Virus record (IMG/VR): IMGVR_UViG_2537561965_000009
Source: a virus
Lineage: Duplodnaviria; Heunggongvirae; Uroviricota; Caudoviricetes
DNA: 52,523 nucleotides
Reading direction: 5' to 3' (one strand)
The position numbers and the translations under genes were made by a program. How positions within the stretch are numbered: position 1 is the stretch's first letter; each line of letters begins with the position of its first letter. Of this stretch, positions 4,522-50,049 are shown piece after piece. A model generated the notes under the pieces. It worked only from the letters and a program-made list of their open reading frames with translations. It was not told where the DNA came from and searched no databases.

Positions 4522-4579
4522 AATTCACTTTAAAAAGGGCGGCAGAGCAGTCACGGAGTAAAACTGATACCGCCAAACG
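4522..4579 (-). ncRNA. dicF: DicF small regulatory RNA
   Basis: Minus-strand sequence UUUCUGGUGACGUUUGGCGGUAUCAGUUUUACUCCGUGACUGCUCUGCCGCCC followed by a U-run matches the DicF sRNA as I recall it; located between ydfC-like and dicB-like genes as in Qin. Confidence 0.6.
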
Positions 4580-4927
4580 TCACCAGAAAATTGATAACAG
4601 AGGGCGTTGCAGCGGAGTTGTCACTTAAGCGTATGGTCAACCTGACAACCCGGTGTCCTCAACGGAGGAAGGAATAACCCCGCCATACTTACCGCCGCGC
4701 CATTTCGCGGAGTGCCACAACCGGAAGCGCACGGTCGAACTAAATTTAACGACACCGTACAGAGAGACCAATTTCGCCGTGCGCTTTCGCTTTATGCCCT
4801 GACTTTTCAGGGACATATCCTTTCAGTAAACTGTCAGTGCCGGATGTTCACCCGTGTCCGGCGCACGCACTCCACCTGACCCGTGGAGAACTCCTTAATT
4901 ACCAACCTTAGCTTCGTTGGTTAGCTA

Positions 4928-12790: not shown

Positions 12791-12935
12791 ATACAGCGAA
12801 CGCCATTGGTTTAGTTGGATATTTACTGTGCCGGACAAAAACGGTTTGCGGGGAAATCTTAGTTAAGTAGAATGACTGCGGGTGCTTGAGGCTATCTGTC
12901 TCAGGCATGAACACCAAAAGGCAGATAGAGAAAAG

Positions 12936-13000
12936 CCCCAGTTAACATTACGCGTCCTGCAAGACGCTTAACATTAATCTGAGGCCATATCTATGCTCTA
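12936..13000 (-). ncRNA. sok: candidate Sok antisense RNA
   Basis: Minus-strand promoter-like TTGCCT (rc of 13031-13036) and TAACCT (rc of 13007-13012) with 17-bp spacer, positioned like the sok promoter of hok/sok loci; extent is an estimate. Confidence 0.35.
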
Positions 13001-13205
13001 CACACGTAGGTTAGCCTCTTACGTGCCGAAAGGCAAGGAGAAGCAGGCTATGAAGCAGCAAAAGGCGATGCTAATCGCCCTGATCGTCATCTGTTTAACC
13101 GTCATAGTGACGGCACTGGTAACGAGGAAAGACCTCTGCGAGGTACGAATCCGAACCGGCCAGACGGAGGTCGCTGTCTTCACAGCTTACGAACCTGAGG
13201 AGTAA
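12993..13205 (+). CDS. mok: mok-like leader reading frame of the hok locus
   Basis: ORF starting upstream of hok and running to the same stop (here in frame with hok); the 5' leader matches the conserved hok mRNA pattern GCTTGAGGC...AGCCTCTTAC...AAGGAGAAG. Confidence 0.4.
   Translation: MLYTRRLASYVPKGKEKQAMKQQKAMLIALIVICLTVIVTALVTRKDLCEVRIRTGQTEVAVFTAYEPEE
13050..13205 (+). CDS. hok: Hok/Gef-family type I toxin
   Basis: 51-aa product MKQQKAMLIALIVICLTVIVTALVTRKDLCEVRIRTGQTEVAVFTAYEPEE has the Hok signature; AGGAG SD at 13036-13040. Confidence 0.85.
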   Translation: MKQQKAMLIALIVICLTVIVTALVTRKDLCEVRIRTGQTEVAVFTAYEPEE

Positions 13206-14704: not shown

Positions 14705-15070
14705 ATGACTGAACGCATAGAATTTGTTTTGCCTTACCCGCCAACGGTGAACACTTACTGGCGACGTCGTGGCAGCACATATTTTGTATCAAAAGCCGGT
14801 GAGCGTTATCGCCGTGATGTGGCGCTTATTGTTCGCCAGCAGCGGCTGAAATTAAACCTGTCCGGAAGGCTGGCGATAAAGATTATTGCAGAGCCACCGG
14901 ATAAACGTCGTCGTGACCTGGACAATATCCTGAAAGCACCACTGGATGCGCTGACGCATGCCGGACTTCTCATAGACGACGAGCAGTTTGATGAAATCAA
15001 TATTGTGCGCGGTCAGCGCGTTCCTGGGGGGCGGCTGGGCGTGAAGATTTACAAAATTGAGAGTGAGTGA
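14705..15070 (+). CDS. rusA: Holliday junction resolvase RusA
   Basis: 121-aa ORF MTERIEFVLPYPPTVNTYWRRRG... with the RusA signature; overlaps the upstream stop. Confidence 0.85.
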   Translation: MTERIEFVLPYPPTVNTYWRRRGSTYFVSKAGERYRRDVALIVRQQRLKLNLSGRLAIKIIAEPPDKRRRDLDNILKAPLDALTHAGLLIDDEQFDEINIVRGQRVPGGRLGVKIYKIESE

Positions 15071-19166: not shown

Positions 19167-19242
19167 GGCCCTTTAGCTCAGTGGTGAGAGCGAGCGACTC
19201 ATAATCGCCAGGTCGCTGGTTCAAATCCAGCAAGGGCCACCA
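19167..19242 (+). tRNA. ileZ: tRNA with CAU anticodon, ileX-like (tRNA-Ile2)
   Basis: 76-nt cloverleaf GGCCCTT...AAGGGCCACCA with anticodon loop CUCAUAA; closely resembles E. coli ileX as recalled; same position as ileZ in Stx-type phages. Confidence 0.8.
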
Positions 19243-19249
19243 TCACATA

Positions 19250-19326
19250 CCGCCATTAGCTCATCAGGAAAGAGCGCCAGCCTTCGAAGCTGGTTGCGCG
19301 GGGTTCAAGTCCCCGATGGCGGTCCA
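19250..19326 (+). tRNA. argN: tRNA-Arg (anticodon UCG)
   Basis: 77-nt cloverleaf with acceptor CCGCCAT/ATGGCGG, anticodon loop CUUCGAA, T-arm CGGGGTTCAAGTCCCCG and encoded CCA. Confidence 0.75.
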
Positions 19327-19339
19327 TTATCTGCATCAT

Positions 19340-19416
19340 GCGTTGTTAGCTCAGCCGGACAGAGCAATTGCCTTCTAAGCAATCGGTCACTGGTTCGAAT
19401 CCAGTACAACGCGCCA
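19340..19416 (+). tRNA. argO: tRNA-Arg (anticodon UCU)
   Basis: 77-nt cloverleaf GCGTTGT...ACAACGCGCCA with anticodon loop CUUCUAA. Confidence 0.8.
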
Positions 19417-19707
19417 CACTTATTTTCCCTGGCTCGCTTTTGTGGGCCTTTTTTTTAAATGTCTCACAATTTAGGCGGTTGACTGTTGTCTGGTTTGCGG
19501 GGAGTTTGTTAAAAGAAACTGGCATGGTGAATCCCCCTGTGCGGAGGGGCAATCAGCGAGTAGGTATATGGGATAATCGCGGATTCAGGTGCTGGTACTG
19601 AATTCACCGGGAGGCACCCGGCACCATGCAATGGCACATAGCGCCACTCTCCAGCCCCTCTCCGGAGGGGCTGTTTATATTGATTTTGTCAGATGTGAGT
19701 AAACTGC

Positions 19708-23215: not shown

Positions 23216-23749
23216 ATGAACGCAAAAATCAGATACGGCCTGTCGGCTGCCGTTCTGGCACTGATTGCCGTCGGTGCGCCTGCGCCTGATATTCTCGACC
23301 AGTTTCTGGATGAAAAAGAAGGTAACCACACAACGGCATACCGCGATGGTTCCGGCATCTGGACCATCTGTCGGGGTGCCACGGTGGTGGATGGAAAACC
23401 CGTTTTTCCCGGTATGAAACTGTCGAAGGAAAAATGCGACCAGGTTAACGCCATTGAACGGGATAAGGCGCTGGCATGGGTGGAGCGCAATATTAAAGTG
23501 CCACTGACCGAACCACAGAAAGCGGGTATCGCGTCATTTTGTCCCTATAACATTGGCCCCGGTAAGTGTTTCCCGTCGACGTTTTATAAGCGGCTGAATG
23601 CCGGTGATCGTAAAGGTGCATGCGAGGCGATTCGCTGGTGGATAAAAGATGGTGGGCGCGATTGCCGCATACGTTCAAATAACTGCTATGGACAGGTTAT
23701 TCGTCGTGACCAGGAAAGCGCATTAGCCTGTTGGGGGATAGATCAGTGA
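23216..23749 (+). CDS. R: SAR endolysin (lysozyme, phage 21 R-type)
   Basis: 177-aa ORF; N-terminal signal-anchor-release segment [17 protein letters not shown]; catalytic E-x8-D-x5-T pattern [16 protein letters not shown]; C-terminal region resembles R21. Confidence 0.8.
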
Positions 23750-24204
23750 GCAGAGTCGCCGCGATTATTTATGCTCTGGTTATCTGCATCATCGTCTGCC
23801 TGTCATGGGCTGTTAATCATTACCGTGATAACGCAATCGCCTACAAAGAGCAGCGCGATAACAAGGCCAGTGAACTGGAGAAGGCGAACGCCACCATCGC
23901 TGACATGCGGAAGCGTCAACGTGATGTAGCAGAACTCGACGCAAGATACACAAAGGAGCTTGCTGATGCTAACGCGACTATCGAAAGTCTCCGTGTTGAT
24001 GTTTCTGCTGGGCGTAAGCGCCTGCAAGTCGCCGCCACCTGTGCAAAGTCAACGACCGGAGCCAGCGGCATGGGCGATGGAGAAAGCCCAAGACTTACAG
24101 CAGATGCTGAACTCAATTATTACCGTCTCCGAAGTGGAATCGACAAGATAACCGCGCAGGTTAACTACCTGCAGGAATACATCAGGACGCAATGCCTGAA
24201 ATAA
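23746..24204 (+). CDS. Rz: i-spanin Rz
   Basis: GTG start overlapping the R stop; product [38 protein letters not shown]... is close to lambda Rz. Confidence 0.85.
23966..24151 (+). CDS. Rz1: o-spanin Rz1 (lipoprotein) embedded in the +1 frame of Rz
   Basis: 61-aa ORF with AAAGGAG SD; lipobox LLGVSAC and proline-rich mature part. Confidence 0.75.
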
Positions 24205-24236
24205 TTTTTTTGCAAATCACAAAGTCCATTTAATGA

Positions 24237-24259
24237 GCCTCGCGATGCGGGGCTTTTTT
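24237..24259 (+). terminator. rho-independent terminator after the lysis cassette
   Basis: GCCTCGC-GAT-GCGGGGC hairpin followed by TTTTTT. Confidence 0.6.
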
Positions 24260-24408
24260 GCAATAAATGCGTACCGCAACGCATGTTTTTTTTACACCGA
24301 ACCTGCCCCTTTGGAATGGGCCTTTGAGGATACCAGTTAGTGCTGGCGAGCCTCGGTGGGCTGGTTTCCTGTGCGGCAAAGGTTCATTTCAAATGGTAGG
24401 TAAACGTT

Positions 24409-24930
24409 ATGAATATCGTGCCACTTAATTACAAAGGTGAAATTGTCAGTTTCAACACTGATGGTTGGATCAACGTCACAGGTGTTGCTGAGAGATTTGG
24501 GAAACGCATTGATAACTGGATGCGTTTGGCAGAAACGCTTGAATACGTTCGTGCTTTAGACGAAGCGTTGACCGGGAAAGAATCTCAAATTTTACATCCC
24601 TCACAATCGAGGTATGTAAAAACCAGCAAGGCACGAAAGGACAGGGGTGGTGGTACGTGGCTACATCCAAAACTTTCAGTTGCATTTGCCCGTTGGTGTG
24701 ATGCTCGTTTTGCTGTGTGGTGCGACCTGCACATTGATAGTCTGCTTCGCGGTGAACTGACTGAGCAGCAGAAATATGAGCAAGCATGTCGCATTCGCGA
24801 TGACCGGAAATCAAAAGCCAGCAATGGGGCAAGAGAGATGGCTCGCTGGCGATGGGATAAGCCGGTTATTGAAGCAAATGTTGAGTACTGGCGCGAGCAA
24901 CTGCAGTTGACTCTCGATATCGCGTGCTGA
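24409..24930 (+). CDS. KilA-N domain protein
   Basis: 173-aa ORF; N-terminal region ...GWINVTGVAERFGKRIDNWMRL...GGGTWLHPKLSVAFARWCDARFAVW matches the KilA-N DNA-binding domain pattern. Confidence 0.7.
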   Translation: MNIVPLNYKGEIVSFNTDGWINVTGVAERFGKRIDNWMRLAETLEYVRALDEALTGKESQILHPSQSRYVKTSKARKDRGGGTWLHPKLSVAFARWCDARFAVWCDLHIDSLLRGELTEQQKYEQACRIRDDRKSKASNGAREMARWRWDKPVIEANVEYWREQLQLTLDIAC

Positions 24931-25639
24931 TGGCAAACGCAAAACTGCGTTATCGAAAAAATCAAAGCATTACTAGAACTGAGCAACGGCTATCCATTAC
25001 AAAGCCCATCTACGGGTGGGCTTGATAATGAAACCGTGATTTACATCCCCACAATCCGGGTATGTAAAAGATAGTTCAGGCGAGAACGGATTTAACTAAA
25101 TCTGTGCGCCACCAGTTAACGGCAGTACCACGAAACAACCCAAGCCAGTAAGTGGGGAAATAACACCGGCAGCCACTGAAAGATGAACCTCCTGCCTTAT
25201 GGCAAAAAGGATTCTTTGTGGTGGCGGACTGATGGAAAGACATCCTAATTTCAGCCAAACATTGAAGGAGTTGTTATGTCAGCAGAAGGTTTCAATAACC
25301 CATCAAAATTCCGGGATGAGTGGGATAGCAGCGTAAAGAGTAAGTGATGCCATCACAAAAGCCATTCCCTACAGAGTGGCTTTGATAATGGCTTATACCC
25401 TACACGGGATAACTTAACTGATATCCCTTTTAAAGGATAAAGGTATTCAAGCCTGACACATCATGCGCTGTATCGTCGCCGTATTCCCGTATTAACAGAG
25501 ACCGTAGCCCGACGGGGAACTCCTTCTGCGCGAGTGTGCGGGAATAATCAAAAACGATGCACACCGGGGTTACCGGGTACACATATTTCATCATGCCAGC
25601 GAGTCCGGTTCTGGCACGGAAGAAACCGGACGTTATGAT

Positions 25640-26050
25640 TTAGTGCGGAAATATTTGTGTAGTGTTCTGAATGTTCTCAGTAAAGAGTAATGAATTATCA
25701 AAGGTATAGTAATACCTTTTGTTTTCGTGGATATTTGTAATCCATCTGAAAACCCCTGCTGTAGCAAGATTTTTCCTGTATTCGTAAAATGATAACTCTC
25801 CTGATTTGAATCCTTTTAATGTGGCTTCTATAAGGCATTTATTTTTTGAAAATCTTACATTTACAACCTTACCCTGTCCTTTTATTAAAACCGTATTATC
25901 GTTTTCAAGAACAAGATGAATATTCTCTGTGGCTAAATAGTAAATGTAATGTGAGACATTGTGACGTTTTAGTTCAGAATAAAACCAGTGATAGTTTAAA
26001 TTATTTCGCACTTTATCGAATATTTGTTTAAAAATGGCAACCTGAGCCAT
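25640..26050 (-). CDS. AT-rich hypothetical protein (moron candidate)
   Basis: 136 aa from ATG 26050 with GGAAGG SD; low-GC gene unlike its neighbours; no family recognised. Confidence 0.45.
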
Positions 26051-26107
26051 TGTAGTACCTTCCATGTGATATGAAGGTACCTAGTCTGCACGATTATCTA
26101 AATTGCT

Positions 26108-26341
26108 TCAATCTGGTCTGACCTGCTTTCTGAGCAATTCAGTAATGTCACTCTTTTCTTTGTTTGCTTCAGGCGAAACTCTTTTTTCTGAGCACAGTCT
26201 TCGGCGGCAGGCTTCAATGACCCAGGCTGAGAAATTCCCAGACCCTTTTTGATCAAGAGCGATGTTAATTTGTTCAATCATTTGGTTAGGAAAGCGGATG
26301 TTGCGGGTTGTTGTTCTGCGGGTTCTGTTCTTCGTTGACAT
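26108..26341 (-). CDS. small ribbon-helix-helix-like DNA-binding protein
   Basis: 77-aa ORF; segment RFPNQMIEQINIALDQKGSGNFSAWVIEACRRRL resembles RHH (Arc/CopG-like) folds; sits just left of cos. Confidence 0.5.
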   Translation of the reverse strand: MSTKNRTRRTTTRNIRFPNQMIEQINIALDQKGSGNFSAWVIEACRRRLCSEKRVSPEANKEKSDITELLRKQVRPD

Positions 26342-26540
26342 GAGGTTGCCCTGTATTCAGTGTCGCTGATTTGTATTGTCTGAAGTTGTTTTTACGTTAA
26401 GTTGATGCAGATCAATTAATATGATACCTGCGTCATAATTGATTATTTGACGTGGTTTGATGGCGTAGATGCACGTTGTGACATGCAGATGATAATTATT
26501 ATCATTTTGCGGGTCATTTCCGGCGATCCGACAGGTTACG

Positions 26541-49468: not shown

Positions 49469-50049
49469 TGGCATTCAGAATGAGTGAACAACCACGGACC
49501 ATAAAAATTTATAATCTGCTGTCCGGAACTAATGAATTTATTGGTGAAGGTGATGCATATATTCCGCCTCATACAGGTCTGCCAGCAAACAGTACCGACA
49601 TTGCACCGCCAGATATTCCAGCTGGCTTCGTGGCTGTTTTCAACAGTGATGAGTCATCGTGGCATCTCGTTGAAGATCATCGGGGTAAAACGGTTTATGA
49701 CGTGGCTTCCGGCGACGCGTTATTTATTTCTGAACTCGGCTCATTACCGGAAAATGTCACCTGGTTATCCCCGGAAGGGGAGTTTCAGAAGTGGAACGGC
49801 ACAGCCTGGGTGAAAGATGCAGAAGCAGAAAAACTATTCCGGATCCGGGAGGCGGAAGAAACAAAAAACAGCCTGATGCAGGCAGCGAATGAGCATATTG
49901 CGCCACTTCAGGATGCTGTAGATCTGGAGATCGCAACGGAGGAAGAAACTTCGTTGCTGGAAGTCTGGAAAAAGTATCGGGTGTTGCTGAACCGTGTTAA
50001 TACAACAACTGCTCCGGATATTGAATGGCCAGTAGCACCTATAGGGTAA
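49468..50049 (+). CDS. tfa: tail fibre assembly protein Tfa
   Basis: 193-aa ORF, ATG overlapping the stf stop. Confidence 0.85.

Follow-up and report, generated by a model that had tools for sequence, protein, structure and literature searches.

The locus and its stem-loops

The present work concerns a set of palindromic repeats in a 52,523-nucleotide (nt) stretch of viral DNA (IMG/VR record IMGVR_UViG_2537561965_000009), called the window below, which is a lambdoid prophage of E. coli. The part that bears the repeats is mosaic and lies between the lysis and packaging genes; the 1.5 kilobases (kb) around them are 99.9% identical to E. coli S1-CAM-01-C. The repeats are five or six stem-loops, which we name A1, A2, B1, B2 and C, plus a small one, D. 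A first-pass annotation, made from the letters of the sequence, had described them as imperfect palindromes that may be duplicated gene remnants or regulator binding sites. The finding is real and it goes beyond these two proposals: the B hairpins belong to a phage hairpin family tied to accessory cassettes, and A is a structure within a coding sequence. Genes and hairpins of the region, with lengths in base pairs (bp), are as follows.

23216-23749, lysozyme gene
23731-24204, Rz gene, followed by two intrinsic terminators
24409-24930, + strand, KilA-N gene, followed by about 710 bp without annotation
24590-24621, + strand, hairpin A1: TTTTACATCCCTC/ACAATC/GAGGTATGTAAAA, a 13-bp stem with one C.U mismatch and the loop ACAATC; fold -12.4 kcal/mol, z = -6.3
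24995-25030, + strand, hairpin B1: base CAUUA/UAAUG, internal loop CA/GA, upper stem AAGCCCAUC/GGUGGGCUU with a U.G pair, loop UACG; fold -20.6 kcal/mol, z = -5.8
25040-25068, + strand, hairpin A2: TTTACATCCCC/ACAATCC/GGGTATGTAAA, intergenic, 10 nt 3' of B1; fold -9.7 kcal/mol, z = -3.6
25087-25106, + strand, hairpin D: ACGGAUUU/AAAUCUGU; fold -6.3 kcal/mol, z = -5.1
25349-25392 (core 25351-25390), + strand, hairpin B2: architecture of B1, upper stem AAAGCCAUUC/GAGUGGCUUU, loop CCUACA; fold -21.1 kcal/mol, z = -5.2
25393-25412, + strand, hairpin C: UUAUACCC/GGGAUAA with a bulged A; fold -4.4 kcal/mol, z = -3.4
25640-26065, - strand, DUF1398 gene, convergent
26108-26341, - strand, YlcI/DUF3950 gene, convergent
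from 26730, packaging genes

Every element listed by the first-pass annotation is present in the sequence. A1 indeed lies within the KilA-N coding sequence, the GGGATAA palindrome is hairpin C, and the intervening DNA holds short open reading frames (ORFs) only, as the list of ORFs confirms. Two placements had to be corrected: the coordinates of A2 had been 1 nt too low, and B2 is longer than the 25362-25390 given for it. Hairpin D had been missed; relatives of the HK544 type carry a small homologue of it, CCGGAAUUUAUUCUGG. A search for inverted repeats recovers the same palindromes (A1 as I12, B1 as I11, B2 as I3), together with the direct repeats D5 and D9. The search for further copies, which the annotation had proposed, found zero more A or B in the 52.5-kb window. 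In shuffle tests 0 of 200 shuffles were as stable as any tested hairpin (z from -3.4 to -6.3), and the region 24985-25445, taken whole, has more structure than usual on either strand (z = -4.6 and -4.1).

A covarying hairpin family

B is a widespread and apparently undescribed hairpin family. Its members are about 40 nt long and share a fixed architecture. A 5-bp foot, CAUYA/URAUG, is followed by a 2x2 internal loop (5'-CA/5'-GA) and by an upper stem of 9-10 bp whose middle covaries freely. The apex reads CAUY...RGUG, with a conserved U.G pair two positions below a loop that is variable in sequence and ranges from 3 to 8 nt. The G+C content is 40-49% and the feet are AU-rich. A covariance model made from nine B copies recovered 69 distinct variants from the loci in hand, B1 scoring 61.4 bits and B2 51.7 bits. 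The CA/GA internal loop is present in 66 of these variants and the U.G pair in 63. Standard pairs occupy 96.8% of their stem cells, and 11 of the 14 pairs have changed on both sides. The observed pairing values were reached by 0 of 500 column shuffles, and pairing falls to 30-47% when the register is slid.

Because this sample was fitted to the model, an independent test was run, consisting of pattern scans of IMG/VR in which only feet and apex were fixed and five stem pairs were left free. Each scan gave at least 120 matches. Among the matches listed, at least 92 unique variants contribute 460 free pairs, namely 386 Watson-Crick, 61 G.U, 8 A.C and 5 other, so that about 97% of the unconstrained stem positions are paired; their stems are as varied as AGGCG/CGCCU, GCAGG/CCUGU, GGUGG/CCAUC and GAGAC/GUCUC. 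With the same pattern, matches were obtained in 70 species-representative genomes from across Enterobacterales (Serratia, Yersinia, Pectobacterium, Erwinia, Pantoea, Klebsiella and Citrobacter among others). There, 41 variants yield 166 Watson-Crick, 28 G.U, 4 A.C and 7 other combinations (194 of 205 paired). The structure of B is under selection.

The two copies in the window differ from each other by compensatory changes in the stem and therefore do not stem from a recent duplication. Each of them is orthologous to widely distributed variants instead of being a copy of the other; at the B2 site, P22, HK620 and HK106 have GAGGCC/GG(U/C)CUC.

Pairing is also asymmetric between the strands. In the covariance-model sample B stems contain 112 G.U against 17 A.C combinations, and the free pairs of the two pattern-derived samples sum to 89 against 12. 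Transitions are thus tolerated when they produce G.U on the + strand, but not when they would produce it on the - strand. In 104 of 114 and in 62 of 69 variants the + strand folds more stably than the - strand, by about 4 kcal/mol in the mean. Judged from these sequences, the asymmetry points to a folded + strand, that is, to the sense strand of the late transcript.

Rfam reported nothing relevant at its gathering threshold in 16 loci with B hairpins, and nothing in HK544, ev099, HK620, Sf6 and HK106. In the full texts of the literature searched, neither the hairpin sequences nor a description that specifically fits them turned up; a preprint on Pas-sRNA was set aside as a match, since it concerns different prophage loci. 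The detailed regulatory annotation of HK620 has no feature at its two B hairpins, and B is without annotation in Sf6, P22 and HK97 as well.

Genomic setting of B

Among phages of Enterobacterales, the hairpin has the orientation of its flanking genes in 202 of 217 distinct contexts. Counted by the amount of coding sequence, its own strand prevails in 202 of 213, and in the 11 exceptions the adjacent real genes are still on the strand of the hairpin. It typically follows a stop codon directly. In 106 of 177 contexts (about 60%) the gap between stop codon and foot is 0-3 nt, and in 138 of 187 de-duplicated ones a stop lies 0-4 nt upstream. Genes on both sides are highly diverse, with at least 64 protein clusters upstream and 83 downstream; the families include DUF2560, Acb2/Tad1, T5orf172/GIY-YIG nucleases, Rha-ORF11CD3 regulators, colicin-immunity-like proteins and DUF551 (Pfam). 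Outside the hairpin the conservation ends abruptly. Information content is about zero at position +1 after B and by position -5 before it, and the residual upstream signal is the stop codon. The next co-directional gene usually starts 15-75 nt downstream.

There is no U tract after B, and no conserved U run in 183 distinct downstream flanks (in the window B1 is followed by AAACCG and B2 by GCUUAU). In about 10% of contexts a canonical intrinsic terminator ends right before the foot of B, which is therefore a separate element. Nor is hairpin C a general partner of B, given the same 183 flanks. It follows B2 only in those phages that have the linker in common up to position 25441, and in P22 it has CCA/UGG instead of CCC/GGG.

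Arrays of two or three B copies are common, each copy after a small ORF. In complete or near-complete phages B is confined to accessory slots of the late region. Like the window, the whole HK620 genome has two copies, both after the lysis genes; the stretches searched contained one in P22 and two in HK97, and the right arm of lambda contained no B hairpin.

Several IMG/VR loci have B right after anti-defence or immunity genes: L218 and L240 (Acb2/Tad1-like), L403 and L345 (colicin-immunity-like) and L339 (T5orf172). B could mark slots of accessory and anti-defence genes in lambdoid phages. It is also found between Q and the holin gene (L034, 8750-8791, - strand; L113, 7821-7862, - strand; L104, 264-305). 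The copies in this slot follow a possible HNH-type nuclease gene, proposed from its sequence, or an ORF of 65 amino acids, and the 3' bases of their internal loop can be AU instead of GA.

Two conceivable roles of the flanking codons were discarded. The invariant AUG of the 3' foot might be a start codon; an ORF of at least 50 amino acids begins there in 16 of 171 contexts, and the estimated chance rate, (61/64)^50, is about 9%, in agreement with this count. A SECIS-like or stop-codon read-through role does not fit either, as all three stop codons are used before B. Two weak matches to the covariance model elsewhere in the window are treated as chance. One, at 14881-14930, falls inside an ORF of 121 amino acids (14705-15070). 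The other, a probable chance match at 25690-25745 on the - strand (10.7 bits, E = 1.9), falls inside the 3' end of the DUF1398 gene, where B-type feet, AUUACAAA...UUGAUAAU, enclose an unrelated 8-bp hairpin.

B as a joint of mosaic genomes

Comparison of related phages defines two segments at the locus that some of them lack.

25031-25390, 360 bp, cassette between B1 and B2, delimited by BLAST breakpoints and alignment; missing in ev099
25044-25104, 61 bp, segment that bears A2, with an imperfect direct repeat AAC(C)G-GATTTA at its flanks

Phage ev099 matches the window up to the end of B1 and continues with the DNA after B2, so that a single B is joined to C and exactly 360 bp are missing. 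HK544 has both B copies and lacks the 61 bp that hold A2; this segment is missing from most other relatives too, and a query coverage of 80% or more was reached by only 14 of 205 phage records. B1, A2 and a further 180 bp are present, about 95% identical, in HK620, Sf6 and HK106, but the gene that precedes them is a different one each time (hkbL, gene 65 and the gene of a GIY-YIG nuclease). In Sf6, gene 66 (Pfam Phage_gp49_66) fills the slot that a mini-ORF occupies in the window, and B2 follows there too. The homology of P22 starts at 25110, at the stop codon of rha. Finally, in Stx2 phage 1717, mEp043, Oslo and a Klebsiella phage, B1 stands alone with unrelated DNA on both sides and follows the last of the post-lysis genes.

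Some hairpins are themselves hybrids. In loci L110/L164 and L063 the 5' arm derives from one variant and the 3' arm from another, which leaves A.C mismatches, and the mismatched arms place the crossover in the conserved apex or loop. B is thus a recombination joint at which cassettes are gained, lost and exchanged. Rad52-like phage recombinases were shown to make mosaics at short, diverged homologies (PMC3945230).

A candidate relic of B is present in the window as well:

24214-24237, + strand, 5' arm and loop (AATCACAAAGTCCATTTAATGAG) fused to the intrinsic terminator after Rz (24235-24259)

This half hairpin belongs to the direct-repeat family D2 and is kept in more than 60 loci, and B2 of P22 has the same CCATTTAATGAG. 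Divergence between the loci begins right after the T run of the terminator, which is annotated in HK544. Its sequence suggests that it may be the relic of a crossover inside the loop of B.

A hairpin inside the KilA-N gene

The KilA-N gene encodes 173 amino acids, of which residues 7-114 match Pfam PF04383 (E = 8.2e-22). It is an accessory gene after the lysis cassette, annotated as KilA-N also in the near-identical E. coli genome, in HK544 and in ev099, and its homologues include HK97 gp73 and D3 orf11. A1 lies in frame within it and encodes ILHPSQSRYVK. Over 31 nt, 90% of positions agree between A1 and A2; by chance, the window should contain the A palindrome pattern 0.02 times.

We collected KilA-N genes by conserved peptide motifs away from the hairpin, which gave 80 loci and 42 unique alleles with 83-100% amino acid identity. 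The A1 hairpin is kept in 42 of 42 alleles, and its outer arms TTTACAT/ATGTAAA are invariant. Diversity at third codon positions averages 0.36 over the gene but is 0.00-0.10 in the eight codons of the arms; codons 61-71 form the second lowest of 163 such stretches in this respect. Two double compensatory pair changes (CCUC/GAGG to CCCG/CGGG), along with repair of the C.U mismatch, distinguish type I from type II alleles. The same change turns the peptide HPSQSR into HTRDSG, so the pairing of A1 is kept at the expense of the protein. A second minimum of synonymous diversity lies in the C-terminal part of the gene, at about 24829-24861 (codons ~141-151, mean third-position diversity 0.14).

One point weighs against this picture. 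The covariation of A derives from few variants, with two double-change pairs and a score of 0.070 against 0.042 after shuffling, and its strand cannot be assigned. The linker that holds A1 varies in length and is missing in HK97 gp73 and D3 orf11; in these more distant genes the hairpin was not found, its 5' arm being absent.

Of its 31 nt, A2 shares 27-30 with A1-type sequences; its stem has CCC/GGG in the window where that of Sf6 has CCU/AGG. A2 invariably stands 10 nt after B1, in 59 IMG/VR loci with at least eight different upstream genes, and co-occurs with this KilA-N gene in 2 of 80 loci. Its 3' flank, GCGAGAACGGAT, resembles that of one KilA-N allele, GCGAGAAAGGAT (p of about 0.005-0.05 before correction, 18 comparisons). 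The similarity is limited to this allele and lost after correction, and we do not regard A2 as a clear fragment of the KilA-N gene. A promoter within A2 was likewise rejected; its TTTACA has no usable -10 hexamer at 16-19 bp, and the promoter scan is empty there.

From these comparisons we conclude that A is an element separate from B and selected at the nucleotide level, with the KilA-N gene as its home. A2 is a portable copy of 30-55 nt that was carried into the linker beside B1 in a minority of phages. The presence of A1 and A2 in one genome is then a rare by-product of mosaic assembly and not a functional pair. The role of A could be that of an RNA structure controlling KilA-N expression, or of a palindromic protein site.

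Other features of the window

Two further features lie between the hairpins.

25110-25244, + strand, conserved non-coding segment of 135 bp, whose start in P22 is the stop codon of rha (ORF201)
25276-25347, + strand, mini-ORF of 23 codons (MSAEGFNNPSKFRDEWDSSVKSK), with the strong Shine-Dalgarno sequence AAGGAG at 25265-25270, 5 nt upstream, and a stop 3 nt before B2

The conserved segment is represented by 93 unique variants with 92-99% identity in P22-, HK97- and lambda-like phages, with 1-nt indels in runs of A. No consensus structure was accepted for it, as the variation is too low for covariation and the stem 25100-25114/25219-25233 is not kept in P22. The mini-ORF is without annotation in the near-identical E. 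coli genome and in HK544. Related loci differ at it by three substitutions, all of them synonymous; the ORF is probably real and may encode a micro-protein.

Rfam 15 gave no relevant gathering-threshold match in the window. In 24100-25800, at E of 10 or less, it reported chance matches of microRNA type and a partial match to Proteo-phage-1 (RF03044; 25139-25174, 19.8 bits, E = 1.2). The latter was rejected, as it covers no more than the unpaired ends of the model (CCCAAG ... GAAAUAACACCGGCAGCC) and both model hairpins are missing; the name of this family occurs in no paper of the literature searched. Elsewhere, matches above the gathering threshold are the following.

4537-4588, - strand, DicF
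12880-13055, sok antitoxin RNA
19167-19416, three tRNAs (Met, Arg, Arg)
19493-19682, STnc100
49811-50009, IS009

A tRNA scan of the window finds the same three tRNAs at 19167-19416 only. The promoter scan of 24100-26500 lists a single promoter-like site, at 25611-25639, away from the hairpins (5.1 are expected in shuffled sequence). The terminator scan lists + strand terminators at 24182, 24267, 24349 and 26301, none of them at A, B or C.

Possible function of B and competing explanations

We suggest that B might be an element of mRNA stability or processing that also serves as a recombination linker, a reading to which we give about an even chance. In late (or moron) mRNA, B would form a barrier at the 3' end of the upstream cistron or a processing site for it, and would stabilise or insulate this cistron without stopping transcription. 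Phage recombinases that act on short diverged homologies would use B as a linker between accessory genes, because it is the only sequence common to otherwise unrelated cassettes. Exchange at B would then account for the 360-bp cassette between the two copies in the window.

Several points count against this proposal. The role in mRNA is one that we infer from sequence comparison. All sampling of B used the covariance model or patterns that fix base and apex, and the conservation of these parts is for that reason partly due to ascertainment. Strand asymmetry alone cannot separate RNA from single-stranded DNA, since G.T pairs are tolerated in folded single-stranded DNA too, and in these phages the direction of transcription is confounded with hairpin orientation. 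In B2 of the window the - strand fold is even slightly stronger than that of the + strand (-24.0 vs -21.1 kcal/mol). Base, internal loop and apex are moreover conserved beyond the needs of an exonuclease barrier, which hints at a specific binding partner.

A different explanation is that a dimeric regulator recognises the palindromes as double-stranded sites; KilA-N itself could bind A in autoregulation, and a phage or host protein could bind B. KilA-N domains bind DNA, there is no variation in the outer arms of A, and base and apex of B are conserved in sequence. We nevertheless regard this as unlikely. The proposal of regulator binding sites, with KilA-N as the protein to be tested, is unsupported in that part, because A2 rarely meets the KilA-N gene and follows at least eight other genes in phages without it. 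In Sf6 and HK106 the locus has A2 but not this KilA-N gene, and the only KilA-N relative in HK620 is a distant one (about 26% identity) that is devoid of A1. A simple dimer would not usually have half-sites as far apart as those of A (about 22 bp). As for B, free covariation in the middle of the stem, tolerance of G.U and not of A.C, and a loop of 3-8 nt indicate a folded strand and not a duplex operator. Operators of TyrR, Fur, LexA, CRP, IHF and DnaA, compared by consensus sequence, seem not to fit in the order or spacing of half-sites. That the hairpins terminate transcription of morons, either on the + strand or bidirectionally to serve the convergent DUF1398 and YlcI genes, seems quite improbable to us. 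Morons classically carry their own terminator, and B does follow the stop codons of accessory genes; on the - strand, U-rich stretches come after B1 and B2 (UUUGUAAU and UUUUGUGAU) and the folds in the window are stable. Yet a + strand U tract is missing, the terminator scan calls B on neither strand, and in most contexts the co-directional gene just downstream has to be transcribed. Those contexts in which a canonical terminator already stands right upstream of B speak against the idea as well. Across the family the - strand fold is weaker in about 90% of variants, and P22-like phages have no minus-strand genes at this position.

The other early proposal, that the repeats are decaying and functionless remnants of duplicated genes, is very unlikely as a general account. 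The repeats are neither unique to this locus nor explained by a tandem duplication of the 3' end of the gene, as they are widespread in phages and prophages of Enterobacterales. For B1, B2 and C the proposal fails, and for B it is largely refuted: B is a large covarying family that follows dozens of unrelated genes (at least 64 families), its compensatory changes keep the pairing, and B1 and B2 have their orthologues in other phages. Decay should be even along the sequence, yet the hairpins are 90-97% identical beside unrelated flanks. The proposal is partly tenable for A2, given its near-identity to the KilA-N hairpin and a flank weakly like that of one allele, and the region is indeed a patchwork of short relics, such as the rha stop at 25110 in P22 and the half-B after Rz. 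An equally poor prospect, in our opinion, is that B acts as folded single-stranded DNA, a structure-specific recombination site of attC-like or HUH/IS200 type, where site-specific exchange of cassettes builds the accessory arrays. Much of the layout would suit it, with a hairpin that closes each cassette on the 3' side, immediately behind the ORF, similarity that stops exactly at the foot on both sides, arrays of ORF plus hairpin, and a cassette present or absent between two copies. The imperfect hairpin with its conserved base, conserved unpaired internal loop and variable top, and the strand bias, would suit it too. No dedicated recombinase, of the IntI type or any other, turned up, though no systematic search for recombinases in B-carrying phages was made; the sole neighbour annotated as a transposase, gp75 of phage Oslo, is a putative metallopeptidase instead. 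The attC core sites RYYYAAC/GTTRRRY are absent, the hybrid crossovers in loop or apex fit ordinary homologous exchange and not cleavage at a fixed site, and the hairpin always follows the direction of transcription. We find it still harder to believe that B is an integron-like cassette recombination site of temperate phages, folded on one strand during replication or packaging and recognised by shape. If this were true, genes for Acb2/Tad1, immunity and nucleases would be captured, excised and reshuffled as units of ORF plus hairpin at exact positions.

Relation to known systems

The closest described system to B are the promoter-early stem-loop (PeSL) cassettes of T4-type phages (Arbiol et al. 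2010; PMC2839356). Both consist of short conserved stem-loop motifs in intergenic position, between the stop of a small accessory ORF and the next start, and both are concentrated in plastic regions of the genome. Single ORFs are inserted or deleted between two copies, with crossovers in or near the loop (in B, this refers to ev099, the arrays, L110/L164 and L063), and PeSLs, too, were proposed as linkers for modular shuffling. PeSLs include a strong early sigma-70 promoter, and their stem-loops act as terminators (PMC2839356). B differs in having no promoter, no U tract and no sequence similarity to them. It resides inside the late operon of temperate lambdoid phages, and it has a fixed architecture with conserved internal loop and apex and extensive covariation.

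In shape and position B is also similar to REP/BIME sequences and to RNase III sites of T7, which are imperfect sense-strand hairpins of about 35-45 nt after a stop codon, between co-transcribed genes, with transcription passing through. There is no sequence relation to REPs, which are linked to RAYT transposases and scattered along the chromosome as GC-rich palindromes of about 35 nt with a head of GTAG type; B, with its moderate G+C content and its place in the prophage late region, does not match them. T7 RNase III sites have an internal loop in the stem. With 14-15 pairs and a 2x2 loop (16-17 stem positions), B is compatible with an RNase III site in shape and shorter than classical substrates, whose double-stranded stem spans about two helical turns, and the conservation of its base, internal loop and apex goes far beyond the known requirement.

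Integron attC sites share with B the location at the 3' end of a gene cassette, the paired base, unpaired spacer and variable top, the strand specificity and the arrays of ORF plus hairpin. Unlike them, B has the feet CAUYACA/GAURAUG in 66 of 69 variants and in all pattern-derived ones, no GTTRRRY, and hybrid hairpins that point to homologous exchange. Linker or boundary sequences of lambdoid phages have reportedly been described by Susskind and Botstein, and later as the 'bsq' features of Clark et al. 2001. Like B, these are short, conserved, located at module junctions and could guide homologous exchange. They are defined by sequence identity and lie mostly inside genes or at their ends, whereas B is a covarying structure. 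The Sf6 record annotates bsq7 inside Rz, and the stretch of Sf6 examined has no boundary annotation at its B hairpins.

Implications

There has been a long debate on how temperate phages swap single accessory genes while keeping their operons intact. An earlier view favoured homologous recombination at short linkers between modules, a later one 'moron accretion' through random illegitimate joins. For lambdoid phages, B presents a concrete and testable candidate for such a linker, sharply bounded, about 40 nt long and conserved in structure. It would add to Rfam a structured RNA motif that is missing there, with hundreds of variants and strong covariation. Lambda itself has no B, which may be why the hairpin went unnoticed. 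The A hairpin, for its part, is a clean example of a nucleic-acid structure that overrides protein sequence within a gene. If B indeed acts in mRNA stability or processing, it would be a portable expression signal that travels with acquired genes, including those of anti-defence, and a practical marker for finding them.

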